DNA from: a virus
Reading direction: 5' to 3' (one strand)
IMG/VR virus record: IMGVR_UViG_3300047409_000468
Location: 1 to 64,000 of that record
DNA length: 64,000 nucleotides
In this document: positions 481 to 60,357 of the stretch, one piece after another
Numbering within the stretch: the first letter of the stretch is position 1
Layout of the letters: each line of letters begins with the position of its first letter
Program-made: the position numbers and the translations under genes
The notes under the pieces: model-generated
Seen by the model: the letters and a program-made list of their open reading frames with translations, nothing else
What the model was told of the DNA's origin: nothing
The model's database searches: none

Positions 481-1191
481 TCAAGCAGCCTTCTTCTTAC
501 GGCTCTTCTTTGCCGGCTTGCTCTCCTCGTCGTCGTCCTCATTATCGGCAACGACGCCGGGACGCAGGCTGATGTAGCCACGCTCCGGGGCGGAATCATA
601 TGCAATGTCAACTGCCGTGACGCCGGCCTCCTTGGCCTCCTTCACGGTCATGCCATCCTCATACAATTCGAACCGCGCATAGGCGGCGGACCCTTCGCGC
701 TTGGGGTTCTTACCATCCTCGGTCGTCACTGTGATAATCGAGTTTTCGTCGATACGCTTGCGTGCCTCTTCGGCCATCGCTCTTTCCTTTCTGTTGGTTA
801 CATGTTCCGCAGAAGACCGCGTGCCCGTGTCGAAGGATCGAAGGATCCGGCCTTCACGGAACACGCGGTCTTCCTTTATGATACGGACGATTTCGGTTGG
901 ATCGGTCGGTGGCGTACCTGCCGCTCCTGCTACCACGGTCCATAGCAACTGCATGGCGTCCACGGTGAGTGGCCAGTTCTCGATAGCTTCGACAAGGCGG
1001 ACCCTGTTCCTGCCATCTGCGAACCGGAGCAAATCATTGATTCGCCCTCGCCCGTATAGCTCTGCAAGTTGACTAGGCGTCGATGCAAAGACATCATCCA
1101 TCTGCGCAATGGGGTGCAAGCGCGCCGCCCGCAGGTCCTTGAACTTCCAGGCGTCACCTAACCCATTACGTGTCAGTACGATGCAGTGCAT
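481..1191 (-). CDS. Hypothetical protein with C-terminal NPK-GS/DGMT domain and an acidic then basic tail; possible internal start at 777
   Basis: Contains KNPKREGSAAYARFELYEDGMTVKEAKEAGVTAVDIAYDSAPERGYISL. Promoter upstream; AAGGA RBS before the internal ATG at 777. Confidence 0.8.
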   Translation of the reverse strand: MHCIVLTRNGLGDAWKFKDLRAARLHPIAQMDDVFASTPSQLAELYGRGRINDLLRFADGRNRVRLVEAIENWPLTVDAMQLLWTVVAGAAGTPPTDPTEIVRIIKEDRVFREGRILRSFDTGTRSSAEHVTNRKERAMAEEARKRIDENSIITVTTEDGKNPKREGSAAYARFELYEDGMTVKEAKEAGVTAVDIAYDSAPERGYISLRPGVVADNEDDDEESKPAKKSRKKKAA

Positions 1192-1217
1192 TCAATCGTC
1201 TTTCTCATGCACACTCA

Positions 1218-1246
1218 GTCTTATACTCTTTTTCCGCTAATGTAAA
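1218..1246 (-). promoter_or_regulatory. sigma70-type promoter TTTACA-N17-TAAGAC
   Basis: Member of the repeated TTTACA-N17-TA(G/A) promoter family; lies upstream of the 1191 start. Confidence 0.6.
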
Positions 1247-1249
1247 GAG

Positions 1250-1414
1250 CTATTTGCCGTTCGGTCTACTGGTAGTCTCCGGCTGCTTGACTGTAGTCAC
1301 TCTGCATGTCTTACACACATAGCGCATGTACCTATCGACGACGATCTTTGGTGCGTCATCATCTATTTCGAATGTCTTGCTACAAAACGGACAGACACCC
1401 CACCGCTGTATCAT
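1250..1414 (-). CDS. Small zinc-ribbon protein (54 aa)
   Basis: Manual translation MIQRWGVCPFCSKTFEI...YVCKTCRV... has two CxxC pairs; AGGGG RBS. Confidence 0.55.
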   Translation of the reverse strand: MIQRWGVCPFCSKTFEIDDDAPKIVVDRYMRYVCKTCRVTTVKQPETTSRPNGK

Positions 1415-1423
1415 AATTACCCC

Positions 1424-1528
1424 CTATGCCACGAAGAACCATACCATAGCCCCCAATATCACCATGATAAGGGCTGCTATCAACAAGCCCCGGCACCCGG
1501 CCAGTTTATCGCTATTATCGTCATTCAT
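1424..1528 (-). CDS. Small single-pass membrane protein (34 aa)
   Basis: MNDDNSDKLAGCRGLLIAALIMVILGAMVWFFVA; ATGA overlap with the helicase stop. Confidence 0.5.
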   Translation of the reverse strand: MNDDNSDKLAGCRGLLIAALIMVILGAMVWFFVA

Positions 1529-58664: not shown

Positions 58665-58888
58665 CGGATCCGTGCCTGTTCCAGCATCTCGACGAAGTTA
58701 GCCGCGACAAGATACTTGGCTCGCGCCTTGGCTTCGGGATCCCAGTAATTGGGGCCGGGGCTGGCGTGGTTGATACAAGCGTCGGCGACCGCCTGCTGCT
58801 TGGCGGTAAGCTCCCTCTGCCACGTAGCGTAGAGTCGGCTGACCGCCATGCGCTCCTCGTCAAGGTCAATCGTAACCAAATCGGTCAT
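58661..58888 (-). CDS. Hypothetical protein
   Basis: ATG 58888 overlaps the exonuclease stop. Confidence 0.55.
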   Translation of the reverse strand: MTDLVTIDLDEERMAVSRLYATWQRELTAKQQAVADACINHASPGPNYWDPEAKARAKYLVAANFVEMLEQARIR

Positions 58889-59649
58889 AATTCGCTGGCC
58901 CACTTGTTCAGGTAATAGTCCACCGTGTAACGGAGATCAACGTCGTTCTGATACTGGTCGTTGGCCCGCACCATCCATTGCAGATACCCGATCGGCACCT
59001 CGGCCCATGGCTTGCCCTCGTGCTTGCCGAACCGACATATCGGTTGCAATATGGGCGTCGTACTGAGCCGCAGGAGCTCCGTGGGGTCGGCCAGCGCCAG
59101 CATGCGCACCAGCACCGCCGCCGTGCAGGCGGCATCGTACAGCGCCCTGTGCGGGTCCAGGCCAGCTATCAAATCGGCAGGCGGCTCCACCCCGAGGTAA
59201 TAGCGCAGCGTCTGGTTACTGAACTTGGGGCAATCCGGCCACAGGTGCTTGGCGCACTGATAGGTGTCGATCGCCGCCAGCGATAGCTCCGGCAGGAACG
59301 CCATGTCGAACGGCGCGTTGTGCGCCGCGTACAGCATCTGGCCCGGTCGCTCCATTGCCTTCATAGTGCGGATCATCAACGCATGCGGCAGGCAGTCCGG
59401 AGCCCCCGGTAGACAGGACGCCGGGTTGATATGGTGCGTTCCCCGCGCTACCGGGGAGAAGGGCGCGTTGGTTTCCACGTACGACCACGAGCCGGTAAGG
59501 AAATCCCATACGTCGCCAGTGCGCCGGAGTTCCACCAGCCCGATTTCGCACACTTCCGCGCCGGCAGCGGGATCGAGGTCAGTGGTTTCGGTATCCAAAA
59601 CTACAATCTTCGATATGTTATCGTTCATTAATTTGCTCAAGCTTTTCAA
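58885..59649 (-). CDS. DEDDh 3'-5' exonuclease, exonuclease X-like
   Basis: VLDTETT, AHNAPFD, HRALYDA; C-terminal FGKHEGKPWAEVPIGYLQW as in ExoX. Confidence 0.9.
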   Translation of the reverse strand: MKSLSKLMNDNISKIVVLDTETTDLDPAAGAEVCEIGLVELRRTGDVWDFLTGSWSYVETNAPFSPVARGTHHINPASCLPGAPDCLPHALMIRTMKAMERPGQMLYAAHNAPFDMAFLPELSLAAIDTYQCAKHLWPDCPKFSNQTLRYYLGVEPPADLIAGLDPHRALYDAACTAAVLVRMLALADPTELLRLSTTPILQPICRFGKHEGKPWAEVPIGYLQWMVRANDQYQNDVDLRYTVDYYLNKWASEL

Positions 59650-59800
59650 GGAGTTGCACTGCTCGTGTCAACCGCTGGCGATAGCTTACGCTCCTGCGCG
59701 GGCTGAAGCTATGCCGGAGGTACAGATCACTGATGATCTCACCCTGCACCCGTGCAATCATGGTGTAGACCTCATTCAAAGTTTTTTCACTTGCCTCCAT
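59618..59800 (-). CDS. Hypothetical protein
   Basis: 60-aa ORF heading the minus-strand operon. Confidence 0.45.
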   Translation of the reverse strand: MEASEKTLNEVYTMIARVQGEIISDLYLRHSFSPRRSVSYRQRLTRAVQLLEKLEQINER

Positions 59801-59808
59801 TTTATCAC

Positions 59809-59837
59809 TTTACAGATAGCGAAAAGGATACTAGATT
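59809..59837 (+). promoter_or_regulatory. Promoter TTTACA-N17-TAGATT
   Basis: Promoter-family match; leader hairpin GGGCC-GA-GGCCC. Confidence 0.7.
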
Positions 59838-59883
59838 CACGTCATCATCAACCGGGCCGAGGCCCACCTCTCAGGAGCATACC

Positions 59884-60357
59884 ATGTCTACCACTACCTA
59901 CACCAACACGCAGCGCTCCAAGGCGAAGCACACCATTAAGAAGATTTTGGCCATGACCGAGGCCGCTGGCTGCACCCCGGCTCAGGCCGCTACCGCGCAG
60001 ACAAGGGCGCAGGTGTGGATGGACAAGTACGGGTTCACCCCGGCCGACTTTGCCGCCAAGCCGGACGGCTTCACCATTTTCGCGGACGCGATGGCCAAGG
60101 CCGGCAACAAGCCGCAGCCCAAGGCCAAGCCGGCCAAGCCGGCGGCCAAGGGCGCGCGCCGTGGCCCGGCCCCGGAGTACGCGGACACGCAGGTCATCAC
60201 CCTGCTCGTGGCGAACCCCAAGCGTCCCGGCAGCAAGGCGTTCGCTCGGTACGCCAACTACAAGGACGGTATGACCGTGGCGCAGGCGCTCGCCGCCGGC
60301 CTCACCCGCGAGGATTTCCGCTGGGACGTGGAGAAGGGCCACATTGCAATCGCGTAA
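59884..60357 (+). CDS. DUF2786-like N-terminus with C-terminal NPK-GS/DGMT domain
   Basis: IKKILAMTEAAGCTPAQAATAQTRAQVWMDKYG; VITLLVANPKRPGSKAFARYANYKDGMTVAQALAAGLTREDFRWDVEKGHIAI; AGGAG RBS. Confidence 0.85.
   Translation: MSTTTYTNTQRSKAKHTIKKILAMTEAAGCTPAQAATAQTRAQVWMDKYGFTPADFAAKPDGFTIFADAMAKAGNKPQPKAKPAKPAAKGARRGPAPEYADTQVITLLVANPKRPGSKAFARYANYKDGMTVAQALAAGLTREDFRWDVEKGHIAIA

Follow-up and report, generated by a model that had tools for sequence, protein, structure and literature searches.

A small module recurs in one phage genome

What does a phage gain by carrying the same small domain on several different proteins, and what does this domain bind? The question arose from the window, a 64,000-nt stretch (positions 1 to 64,000) of the virus record IMGVR_UViG_3300047409_000468. 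A preliminary description of the window had listed seven copies of such a module in six ORFs, and all of them were found where they had been placed. Using an HMM and a check of the sequence, we identified seven copies of a module of ~60 aa in six ORFs of the phage genome, with the consensus NPK[KR]xG[ST]...[FY]..Y..GMTV...AG...D[LI]x[WYH]D....[FYH]I. The complete genome (78,961 bp) has 1,088 stop-to-stop ORFs, among which the HMM detected exactly seven copies, the next ORF having an E-value of 0.77, and no copy was found at genome positions 64-79 kb. The check proposed beforehand, an HMM built from the copies, gave significant mutual recovery: in leave-one-out runs, every omitted copy was regained with E-values of 9e-15 to 8e-37 (all ≤9e-15), with the best unrelated ORF at E 0.3-1. 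A possible third, eroded copy in the ADP-ribosyltransferase protein (aa 284-316) reached only E 11, and therefore two copies were counted in this protein.

The carriers and their surroundings are listed in Table 1. The module is shared by different proteins, as had been claimed, but they are not six unrelated ones: the two head-operon carriers have a common N-terminal leader, and two early carriers both contain DUF2786. As for the proposed partners, Pfam confirmed the ADP-ribosyltransferase and DUF2786 in both orders, while the ParB-like label found no support. The C-terminus of the 881-aa protein matches ADPrib_exo_Tox (PF03496) with 41.7 bits against a cut-off of 23.4 (E 1.1e-10), and the protein matches phrog_3895 in PHROGs (E 1.1e-5). 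In the C-terminal region of its 376-aa neighbor, no family was detected by Pfam hmmscan (E ≤ 1) or by phmmer against PDB. There is no support for a ParB-like assignment of this region, as PF02195 has no match anywhere in the genome at E ≤ 1. Positions 35068-38843 had no megablast match among 50,697 phage records. No Pfam family was found in the N-terminal region of the protein encoded at 50495-50968.

In P0001, the N-terminal domain is modeled with a pLDDT above 90, and the tail is first acidic and then basic (SKPAKKSRKKKAA). VIA-align with the P0001 model returned a list filled by module matches, with no fold match for the N-terminal domain. The module copy of P0001 belongs to the subtype that adjoins PF18723 in other phages, and in the locus L083 a P0001-like protein is likewise encoded between UvrD and PF18723. 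The PF18723 ORF of our phage runs on across a 127-bp assembly overlap, and the complete protein is 288 aa. The TTTACA hexamer reported upstream of carrier genes was indeed present in front of four of the six, at a distance of 55-75 nt, and the two strands of the window contain only 23 occurrences of it in total.

Table 1. Module copies, carrier genes, neighboring genes and promoter-like sequences in the window
Feature	Position	Strand	Description
PF18723 (HMUDK_hel / aGPT-Pplase1) gene, 5' part	1-432	-	directly downstream of P0001; E 3.5e-22
P0001, 236 aa	481-1191	-	N-terminal domain aa 1-118, linker, module, tail
Module copy in P0001	556-747	-	aa 149-212; core-type subtype RKRIDEN-IIT...NPKREGSAA...
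TTTACA, -35-like hexamer	1241-1246	-	55 nt upstream of P0001; TTTACA-N17-TATAAG
UvrD-like helicase	1525-3033	-	upstream of P0001
MuF-like gene	30004-31077		separate from the ADP-ribosyltransferase gene
881-aa head-operon protein	35068-37713	-	leader, two module copies, long linker region, C-terminal ADP-ribosyltransferase
Module copy 2 of ADP-ribosyltransferase protein	36964-37164	-	aa 184-250
Module copy 1 of ADP-ribosyltransferase protein	37342-37539	-	aa 59-124
376-aa head-operon protein	37713-38843	-	leader as in 881-aa protein, one module copy
Module copy in 376-aa protein	38406-38594	-	aa 84-146
TTTACA hexamer	49045-49050	+	69 nt upstream of 49114
307-aa early-region protein	49114-50037	+	N-terminal module 49117-49305 (aa 2-64), then DUF2786 + DUF7168 (phrog_421)
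Promoter-like TTTACA-N17-TAAGCT	50439-50467	+	upstream of 50495
157-aa protein	50495-50968	+	C-terminal module 50777-50965 (aa 95-157)
Promoter-like TTTACA-N17-TAGATT	59809-59837	+	upstream of 59884
157-aa protein	59884-60357	+	N-terminal DUF2786, Lys/Ala/Pro linker, C-terminal module 60172-60354 (aa 97-157)

The module represents a large, unnamed, virus-restricted family

The module had been thought to match no named family, and our searches bear this out. In the six carriers, it is covered by no family of Pfam-A 2025 or NCBIfam 20 at E ≤ 1, nor of PHROGs v4 at E ≤ 0.01, and no Pfam profile lies over the module in the best 150 relatives at E ≤ 0.001. A sequence search of PDB with the module gave no match, and none of the source annotations of module proteins supplies a name. 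The family comprises 4,844 clusters (50% identity) at E ≤ 1e-3, or 1,528 at E ≤ 1e-10, and the ESM Atlas clusters with the module are named "hypothetical protein" and are 78-100% viral. These results confirm that the module is a real, large and unnamed family, and with thousands of clusters it merits a family definition.

The family is restricted to viruses. We confirmed at least 186 module stretches in IMG/VR, and among 185,579 species genomes found the module in two MAG contigs only. With three module queries, tblastn against 50,697 cultured-phage records matched PhiJL001 alone, and the module was present in 0 of 27 arbitrary viral control records.

Most members are small proteins with disordered tails and without an enzyme partner. 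Stand-alone module proteins often have Lys/Ala-rich tails, such as AKKVAKKVAKKVAKKVAKK and PAPKAKKAKSAKKVAKKVAKKVAKKVAKKAAKK, and a 20-mer of this tail type occurs in 30 of 211 members. Fusion partners among the best 150 relatives include Pyr_excise, Rho_N, HTH_23 and PHD, as well as ADPrib_exo_Tox in 10 and NUDIX in 3.

The module is predicted to be a winged-helix-like unit

AlphaFold modeled the module with confidence (pLDDT 96.5) as b1-H1-H2-turn-H3-b2, the elements being E8-11, H22-27, H36-41, H46-55 and E58-60. The second copy to be modeled, inside P0001, showed an identical layout. Conservation is highest in the NPK[KR]xG[ST] loop, which caps the N-terminal end of helix 1. The turn that links helices 2 and 3, A-x-x-x-G-[LIV]-[ST], is also conserved (A42 81%, G43 85%), and helix 3, the predicted recognition helix, bears two conserved aspartates, D48 (80%) and D52 (98%). 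The module had been described as basic, but it is only mildly so: across 236 instances, the net charge has a median of +2. Together with this charge, the conserved Asp on helix 3 is unusual for a DNA-contacting helix.

With two independent models, the top structural neighbors from VIA-align were all winged-helix domains. Their Z-scores are modest, and the best match (Z 6.5, 2.7 Å over 61 residues) is below the level that the tool regards as informative for a shared arrangement. By Z, the neighbors are GATOR1/SEA (6.5 and 6.1), FAM91A1 (5.4) and PriA (4.5-5.0), and further ones are the MetAP2 insert, RRE domains, and MecI, BlaI, MexR and Zalpha at ~3.3-3.8. Foldseek with the module model found no PDB match at E < 1, and in BFVD the only named match was PhiJL001 gp18 (TM 0.95). 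Overall, the models support the view that the module is a small helix-turn-helix or winged-helix-like unit. The winged helices of GATOR1, FAM91A1, RRE and APC2, which are among the nearest neighbors, bind proteins or peptides, not DNA.

The module gene accompanies thymidine-hypermodification genes

Thymidine hypermodification is known mainly through its enzymes, namely the hydroxymethylase, the 5-hmdU DNA kinase and amino-acid:DNA transferases. PF18723, the aGPT-Pplase1 or 5-hmdU DNA kinase helical domain, was found in 35 of 48 module-bearing records, and in 18 of the 19 that are near-complete; the samples were drawn by likeness to the copies of this phage and to six divergent members, so the 4,844-cluster family is unevenly covered. 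In the first sample (records ≥30 kb), PF18723 was found in 24 of 32 records, and in 15 of 16 at ≥90% completeness. In the second IMG/VR sample, seeded with the six divergent members, it was found in 11 of 16, including 3 of 3 near-complete records. Of the arbitrary viral controls, 1 of 27 had PF18723 (1 of 9 near-complete), and the difference was significant by the Fisher test (p = 1.6e-9 overall, 2.5e-5 for complete genomes). For reference, 95 of 50,697 cultured phages carry PF18723, and the frequency of 5-HMUDK in IMG/VR2 is 4.9e-4 (PMC8989533).

The two genes are also neighbors. PF18723 and the module ORF share a strand and are no more than 4.3 kb apart in 22 of 23 records, with the module upstream in 21 and fewer than 300 nt separating the two in 11. 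PhiJL001 has gp18 (module) followed by gp19 (PF18723), the same order as in the window. In carriers without PF18723, a divergent thymidylate-synthase homolog follows 1.9-3.3 kb downstream of the module, and both loci of this kind that were inspected encode a P-loop kinase in the interval. The ~297-aa proteins found in the place of PF18723 in these phages did not resemble it when compared with its profile by hhalign (probability ≤0.13).

Where a genome has a single module copy, it sits in the modification cluster (10 of 10), and multi-copy genomes have two to seven copies each. On the PF18723 tree, a quick IQ-TREE version, module linkage is scattered, requiring 17 changes, at least 8 of them imposed by branches with good support. 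The linked carriers span genomes of 38-111 kb with differing flanking genes, and the replication helicases UvrD and SNF2 flank the module in several loci. The module is nearby in only ~20% of PF18723 loci (14/80), and tblastn detected no module in hypermodifying phages that are well studied, M6 and YuA among them, so the modification pathway does not need the module.

At 64-70 kb, the genome of our phage encodes Thymidylat_synt (E 1.5e-20), an AAA_18 kinase, radical SAM/SPASM, ino1 and a phosphatase, as well as ADDT at 24.6 bits, just below the cut-off of 26.2. By its predicted gene set, the phage qualifies as a thymidine-hypermodifying phage. Across the genomes compared, the module shows a near-obligate co-occurrence with PF18723 or a putative thymidylate-synthase-like hydroxymethylase. 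The tie to hypermodified thymidine, which had been a guess, gained strong support from this co-occurrence, from the same-strand adjacency and from the contrast with the arbitrary control.

Possible functions of the module

We favor, with a probability of about 0.55, the explanation that the module is a DNA-binding module tied to hmU-derived DNA, which in some lineages was copied onto other proteins. The core form is a small protein whose gene lies a short way upstream of that for aGPT-Pplase1/PF18723; it contains the module alone, the module and a Lys/Ala/Pro-rich tail, or, as in P0001, the module and an additional N-terminal domain. This protein may bind the phage's own 5-hydroxymethyluracil-derived DNA in linker-histone style, through a winged-helix globule and a basic tail; both DNA binding and a preference for modified DNA are inferred. 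In some lineages with genomes of 55-82 kb (this phage, ~79 kb), the module has been copied onto further proteins, here the ADP-ribosyltransferase (twice), its neighbor with the same leader, one small protein and two that contain DUF2786. Acting as a tether, it could hold its carriers to phage DNA from the capsid through ejection into early infection, with the head-operon carriers presumably packaged or injected.

A more specific version, which we put forward only tentatively, would have the module dedicated to reading, in double-stranded DNA, thymidine that is hypermodified (5-hydroxymethyluracil-derived). The [WYH]51-D52 pair of helix 3 and the NPKR-GS loop might recognize the modified major groove and the backbone. 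Its first use would be in organizing or completing the modification alongside aGPT-Pplase1, and next it would serve as a self-DNA address label that brings packaged enzymes (ADP-ribosyltransferase, NUDIX) and early proteins to the incoming genome.

Alternatively, the module may be a protein-protein docking unit for the modification machinery (the PF18723 protein, the P-loop kinase or the transferase) or for another phage hub, to which the multiple carriers would be recruited instead of to DNA. The same-strand position upstream of PF18723, often with a gap below 300 nt, is typical of complex subunits, helix 3 bears conserved acidic residues, and the near structural neighbors GATOR1, FAM91A1 and RiPP recognition elements bind proteins or peptides. 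Moreover, T-modification clusters can encode activators that are not catalytic themselves, as the ParB-like partners of 5mYOX show (PMC13229309). However, PF18723-negative carriers pair the module with an unrelated ~297-aa protein, a kinase and a TS homolog, and this change of neighbor makes a fixed PF18723 partner unlikely. The Lys/Ala-rich tails also suggest a polyanion partner, and two copies in one ADP-ribosyltransferase fit better with avidity on a polymer such as DNA. Complex prediction for the L098 module (residues 1-75) with its neighboring PF18723 protein scored 0.00 in both runs, which is uninformative either way. We regard docking as unlikely.

We give rather little weight to a generic, non-specific DNA or nucleoid binder, whose gene association would reflect common residence in the early or replication block of related phages. 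The winged-helix-like fold with basic tails, the UvrD and SNF2 helicases beside several loci and a possible bias of our samples to relatives of this phage would suit it. Against it, PF18723 is found in 18/19 near-complete carriers versus 1/9 controls, at least eight well-supported changes fall on the PF18723 tree, and genome size (38-111 kb) and flanks differ. Near-absence from cells, presence in 1 of 50,697 cultured phages and in none of 27 arbitrary records would be an unexpected restriction for such a binder. Finally, a sensor or regulatory domain for a small phosphorylated ligand (hm-dUMP, NAD/ADP-ribose) seems highly improbable: a Lys/Arg-Gly-Ser/Thr loop capping a helix, as in NPK[KR]xG[ST], is a common anion-binding arrangement and NAD/ADP-ribose enzymes recur as partners (ADPrib_exo_Tox 10 and NUDIX 3 of the best 150), but most members lack an enzyme partner, the 60-residue three-helix unit has no obvious pocket, and the adjacent genes serve DNA-modifying, not nucleotide-metabolizing, steps.

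If the favored DNA-binding explanation applies and the module binds modified DNA, it would offer a testable answer to how phage proteins discriminate self from host DNA, explain the two copies on the head-operon ADP-ribosyltransferase, and provide a reagent to enrich hypermodified DNA from environmental samples. In the pathway papers PMC8989533, PMC5889632, PMC13229309 and PMC13697223, no protein is described that binds or recognizes the modified product, and no function is reported for aGPT-Pplase1. A true reader would be the first of its kind for thymidine hypermodifications of phages, and a handle for affinity capture of such DNA. Whatever the mechanism, T-modified phages can be flagged in genomes by the module, a new marker that is simple to score.

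Comparison with known systems

Like the winged-helix and helix-turn-helix domains of PriA, MarR/IclR/BlaI-MecI and Zalpha, the modeled module has three short helices, a Gly turn and a small closing beta-sheet. It differs from them in showing no sequence similarity in Pfam, NCBIfam or PDB, with Z only 3.3-6.5, in having its own N-terminal strand and an invariant NPK[KR]xG[ST] loop before helix 1, and in the conserved Asp on the putative recognition helix. The stand-alone module proteins are similar to linker histones H1/H5 in architecture only, as a globule with a Lys/Ala/Pro-rich tail; the Linker_histone profile had no match in the six carriers (E ≤ 1) or in 150 relatives (E ≤ 0.001), and their context is phage DNA modification, whereas that of H1/H5 is chromatin.

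TF1, a protein of phage SPO1, shows a preference for DNA that contains hydroxymethyluracil (Grove et al. 1996, J Mol Biol 260:196, as cited in PMC3969353). Acting on the phage's own T-replaced DNA, TF1 is a functional precedent for the role proposed for the module. TF1 belongs to the HU-type (type II) DNA-binding proteins, its fold is unlike that of the module, and it is not known to recur as a module on other proteins.

The ParB-like activators of phage thymidine dioxygenases are likewise accessory and non-catalytic, lie in T-hypermodification clusters and are patchy on the enzyme tree (PMC13229309). These activators are without a DNA-binding domain (PMC13229309), whereas the module resembles one, and the folds and families are unrelated. 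ParB_N was not found in our genome by profile search (E ≤ 1).

T4 Alt and MuF-fused ADP-ribosyltransferases are polymorphic or packaged phage effectors. As for these effectors, the ADP-ribosyltransferase of our phage is encoded in the head-gene block, between the portal/fiber genes and the capsid gene. Unlike the MuF-fused effectors, the 881-aa protein is without a MuF domain, and carries two modules together with the leader that it shares with its neighbor.

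Module copies and their carriers

The module, a domain of about 60 aa built around NPK[KR]xG[ST], is visible in the conceptual translations of all six carrier ORFs, and a regular-expression search of the six-frame translation found seven NPK[KR]xG[ST] sites and no more. An HMM of the seven copies, run against the 1,088 stop-to-stop ORFs of at least 40 aa in the complete 78,961-bp genome, returned exactly those seven (domain E 2e-33 to 3e-29), with the next-best ORF at E 0.77 and no copy in the remaining 15 kb beyond the window. As a guard against circularity we used leave-one-out HMMs, omitting both copies of the two-copy protein together. 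The omitted copy was still found at E 9e-15 to 8e-37, against 0.3-1 for the best unrelated ORF. The copies therefore align significantly, and the preliminary description's count of seven in six ORFs was recovered by translation, regular expression and HMM alike. Pairwise identity among them is 36-49%, so they are old paralogs, not recent duplications.

Most of the partner domains described for the carriers were found again: hmmscan identified the ADP-ribosyltransferase (PF03496, E 1.1e-10), and a Pfam domain search placed DUF2786 in both orders relative to the module. The ParB-like partner is not supported: a genome search with PF02195 (E<=1), hmmscan (E<=1) and phmmer against PDB gave no match. 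The carriers had also been called unrelated; this fails for the two DUF2786 carriers and for the pair formed by the 376-aa protein at window 37713-38843 and the 881-aa ADP-ribosyltransferase at 35068-37713, both on the minus strand, which open with the same leader. In its first 45 or so residues this leader reads M-A-[RL]-H-x-H-K...K-I-x-[FW]-[ED]-E-A-K-H-x-R-D-x-x-G-[KR]-F, and it might serve for capsid targeting or for processing. The same adjacent pair of large head-operon proteins, a one-copy and a two-copy one, is kept in the sister phages of about 80 kb.

The TTTACA noted upstream of four carriers lies 55-75 nt away from them, and the whole window has only 23 such hexamers. The longer pattern TTTACA-N15-19-TANNNT occurs six times against 0.88 expected, and is probably the phage early-promoter consensus, with T at position 3 of the usual -35 hexamer.

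Genome context and modification genes

Judged by its genes, the genome is that of a tailed phage. Besides the terminase, portal, major capsid and MuF-like genes, the window codes PolA, UvrD, AEP primase and SNF2. The PF18723 ORF lies immediately downstream of the gene of P0001, the 236-aa carrier, and is complete, at 288 aa, when read across the contig-end junction. An identical 127-bp repeat at both contig ends (window 1-127; L080:14835-14961, L080 being the part of the genome beyond the window) seems to have arisen where the assembly of a circular or circularly permuted genome overlaps itself, and not to be a physical terminal repeat. A co-directional run of modification-type genes occupies the minus strand at genome 64953-70312 (L080:953-6312). 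Together, PF18723 and the thymidylate synthase (TS), kinase, phosphatase, ADDT-like, radical SAM and ino1 genes mark the phage, by gene content, as thymidine-hypermodifying. The genes of the minus-strand run are an unusual set for a cluster of this kind, and they suggest that the modification is derived from a cyclitol.

Features of the phage genome and of two related loci
Feature	Location	Strand	Remark
TTTACA-N15-19-TANNNT	window 4361-4390	-	
TTTACA-N15-19-TANNNT	window 8387-8415	+	
TTTACA-N15-19-TANNNT	window 50439-50467	+	
TTTACA-N15-19-TANNNT	window 51521-51549	+	
TTTACA-N15-19-TANNNT	window 56524-56551	+	
TTTACA-N15-19-TANNNT	window 59809-59837	+	
PF18723 (HMUDK_hel; aGPT-Pplase1 in phage records) ORF	window 1-432	-	E 3.5e-22
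P0001 N-terminal domain	window 837-1191	-	aa 1-118
UvrD-like helicase	window 1525-3033	-	
UvrD-like helicase	L080:8049-9659	-	
Collagen-repeat protein	window 12447-14450	-	
MuF-like protein	window 30004-31077		
Major capsid protein	window 32675-33628		
Collagen-repeat protein	window 39891-42578	-	
Portal	window 42985-44628		
Terminase	window 44629-46062		
RTX protein	window 52491-54896	+	HemolysinCabind E 3.9e-53
Thymidylate-synthase homolog	genome 64953-70312 run	-	E 1.5e-20
P-loop kinase (AAA_18)	genome 64953-70312 run	-	
Dual-specificity phosphatase	genome 64953-70312 run	-	
ADDT-like transferase	genome 64953-70312 run	-	24.6 bits, just below cut-off
Radical SAM/SPASM enzyme	genome 64953-70312 run	-	
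ino1, myo-inositol-1-phosphate synthase	genome 64953-70312 run	-	
~297-aa protein	L058:8160-9056	+	
~297-aa protein	L044:10234-11121	+	

Two UvrD-like helicase genes are present in this one 79-kb phage, and the one in the window is conserved upstream of the P0001-type gene in at least one further phage. An 801-aa RTX protein carries many calcium-binding nonapeptide repeats. Two further large proteins contain collagen triple-helix repeats and are probably fibres; one of them also weakly matches the C-terminal region of fibritin.

The module travels with thymidine-modification genes

The key result is that the module travels with thymidine-modification genes. A module-seeded IMG/VR search gave at least 186 confirmed stretches and 78 loci, and PF18723 was then sought in the whole module-bearing records. 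It was present in 24 of the 32 records of at least 30 kb (15/16 of those at least 90% complete). In a second sample of 16 new records, seeded from the six most divergent of the members collected, it was present in 11 (3/3 when at least 90% complete), and the four that had neither PF18723 nor a TS homolog were 18-26%-complete fragments. As a control, viral records of at least 20 kb matching an arbitrary 16-mer had PF18723 in 1/27 (1/9 when at least 90% complete) and the module in 0/27. Taken together, in samples biased towards relatives of the query sequences, the proposed co-occurrence with aGPT-Pplase genes is borne out at 35/48 module-bearing versus 1/27 control records (Fisher's exact, p=1.6e-9), and at 18/19 versus 1/9 near-complete genomes (p=2.5e-5). 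Among 50,697 cultured phage records, 95 have a PF18723 homolog, and for 5-HMUDK a frequency of 4.9e-4 has been published for IMG/VR2 contigs (PMC8989533). Cellular genomes are almost free of the module: a search of 185,579 species gave two MAG contigs, and one of these two MAG genomes also has PF18723.

The two genes are also close neighbours. When 6 kb on each side of PF18723 was scanned in 23 records, a module ORF was found within 4.3 kb in 22, always on the same strand (binomial p 5e-7) and upstream in 21 (p 1e-5), with a gap below 300 nt in 11; the one remaining record has PF18723 where the contig starts and the module where it ends. Tblastn with three module queries matched a single cultured phage, PhiJL001, in which gp18, the module protein, is encoded directly upstream of gp19, the PF18723 protein. 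The present window has the same order, and locus L083 of another virus also has the same upstream UvrD helicase. All five carriers without PF18723 have the module 1.9-3.3 kb upstream of a divergent TS homolog, on the same strand. At the two such loci examined, L058 and L044, the order is SNF2, module, a protein of about 297 aa, P-loop kinase, TS homolog. The ~297-aa protein, which is conserved, thus sits in the place of PF18723, between the module gene and the kinase; it matches no Pfam family, hhalign found no similarity to PF18723, and it could be an undescribed modification enzyme with an analogous function.

Among 18 genomes (17 near-complete IMG/VR records and PhiJL001), copy numbers are 7, 7, 6, 5, 4, 3, 3, 2, and 1 in the other ten, where the sole copy is in every case that of the modification cluster. 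The converse fails, however: the module lies within 6 kb in only 14/80 PF18723 loci, and tblastn found none in M6 or YuA. The relation is therefore nested, in that the module needs the pathway context and the pathway does not need the module.

Family and predicted fold

The preliminary description recognised no named family in the module, and no Pfam-A, NCBIfam or PHROGs profile covers it, either in the six carriers or in 150 relatives. The source databases give module proteins no name, and a profile search of PDB sequences gave chance-level matches only. The ESM Atlas clusters into which it falls are labelled "hypothetical protein", have no Pfam family and are 78-100% viral. The family is large nonetheless: of 1.84 billion cluster representatives, 4,844 match its profile at E<=1e-3, and 1,528 still do at E<=1e-10. 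The module is C-terminal in 131 of the 211 members collected and present twice in 27; partners elsewhere in the family include pyrimidine-dimer DNA glycosylase, Rho_N, HTH_23, PHD fingers, NUDIX and ADP-ribosyltransferases. From 236 distinct instances, with a median net charge of +2, the signature is N15 P16 K17 [RK]18 x G20 [ST]21, R26 [FY]27, Y30, G33 M34 T35 V36, A42 G43, D48 [LI]49 x [WYH]51 D52, [FYH]57 I58, most positions being conserved at 96-99% and some at 78-90%.

An AlphaFold2 model from a 42-sequence alignment (pLDDT 96.5) has the order strand-helix-helix-turn-helix-strand. Foldseek against PDB gave nothing significant, and in an exhaustive VIA-align search the top neighbours were winged-helix domains only: GATOR1 and SEA subunits (Z 6.5 and 6.1), FAM91A1 (5.4), the MetAP2 insert (4.6), the PriA winged helix (4.5), RiPP recognition elements (about 4), and Zalpha, IclR and MarR (about 3.3). 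A second model, of full-length P0001 and thus a different copy, had the same neighbours plus the MecI, BlaI, ORC and MCM winged helices. Since the Z scores are modest, we take the models to support the winged-helix fold class and leave homology to any particular winged-helix family as unproven.

Predicted role of the module

We favour, with a probability of about 0.55, the reading that the module binds DNA, is functionally tied to hmU-derived DNA, and served ancestrally, bound to DNA, as a small accessory protein of the modification cluster. In the lineage of the present phage it would later have been copied onto the head-operon ADP-ribosyltransferase, its leader-sharing neighbour and three early proteins, and the copies would keep these proteins on phage DNA. 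For true base reading, which we regard as doubtful, the only pointers are the nested distribution and a conserved pair of an aromatic residue and Asp on the putative recognition helix.

The module might instead dock on a modification enzyme, next to whose genes it is so often found. The make-up of the PF18723-adjacent proteins makes us think this unlikely. Many of those that lack the N-terminal domain of P0001 are 110-170 aa long and consist of the module and low-complexity Lys/Ala/Pro/Glu tails. Tails of this kind are, for example, PAPKAKKAKSAKKVAKKVAKKVAKKVAKKAAKKRVKK in L098, KKAKKAAKAKAKAKPAKKAKKAKAKK in L099 and SKPAKKSRKKKAA in P0001, and a winged-helix globule with such a tail argues for a polyanion partner, i.e. 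DNA. The N-terminal domain of P0001, predicted with pLDDT >90, is common to only 6/23 of these proteins. Its invariant residues are T7, R8, G10, G12, F17, P27, Q30 and D33; it matched no Pfam family, and a search with the full P0001 model gave no structural match to this domain.

A generic DNA binder, whose apparent linkage comes from shared ancestry or sampling bias, would also fit a winged helix, and we consider it less probable again. On a quick tree of 98 PF18723 proteins, the label "module nearby" appears in both halves and requires 17 changes, at least eight of them forced by well-supported branches; with so scattered a label, the linkage is not the inheritance of a single clade. That the NPKR-GS loop, for all its conservation, makes the module a phosphate or nucleotide sensor seems very improbable.

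Comparison with known systems

The winged-helix fold class and the idea of binders that prefer modified DNA are already known. Linker histone has the layout found in many of the PF18723-adjacent module proteins, a winged-helix globule and a low-complexity tail, and SPO1 TF1 is a precedent for a phage protein preferring hmU DNA (Grove et al. 1996, according to the citing passage in PMC3969353). A term search of four papers on thymidine hypermodification (PMC5889632, PMC8989533, PMC13229309 and PMC13697223) found no description of the module. PMC13229309 shows non-catalytic ParB-like accessories in thymidine hypermodification clusters, which makes an accessory role of the module plausible, although they are of a different family. 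What is new here is the module family itself, its tight link to thymidine hypermodification, and the way it is reused on early proteins and a head-operon effector.
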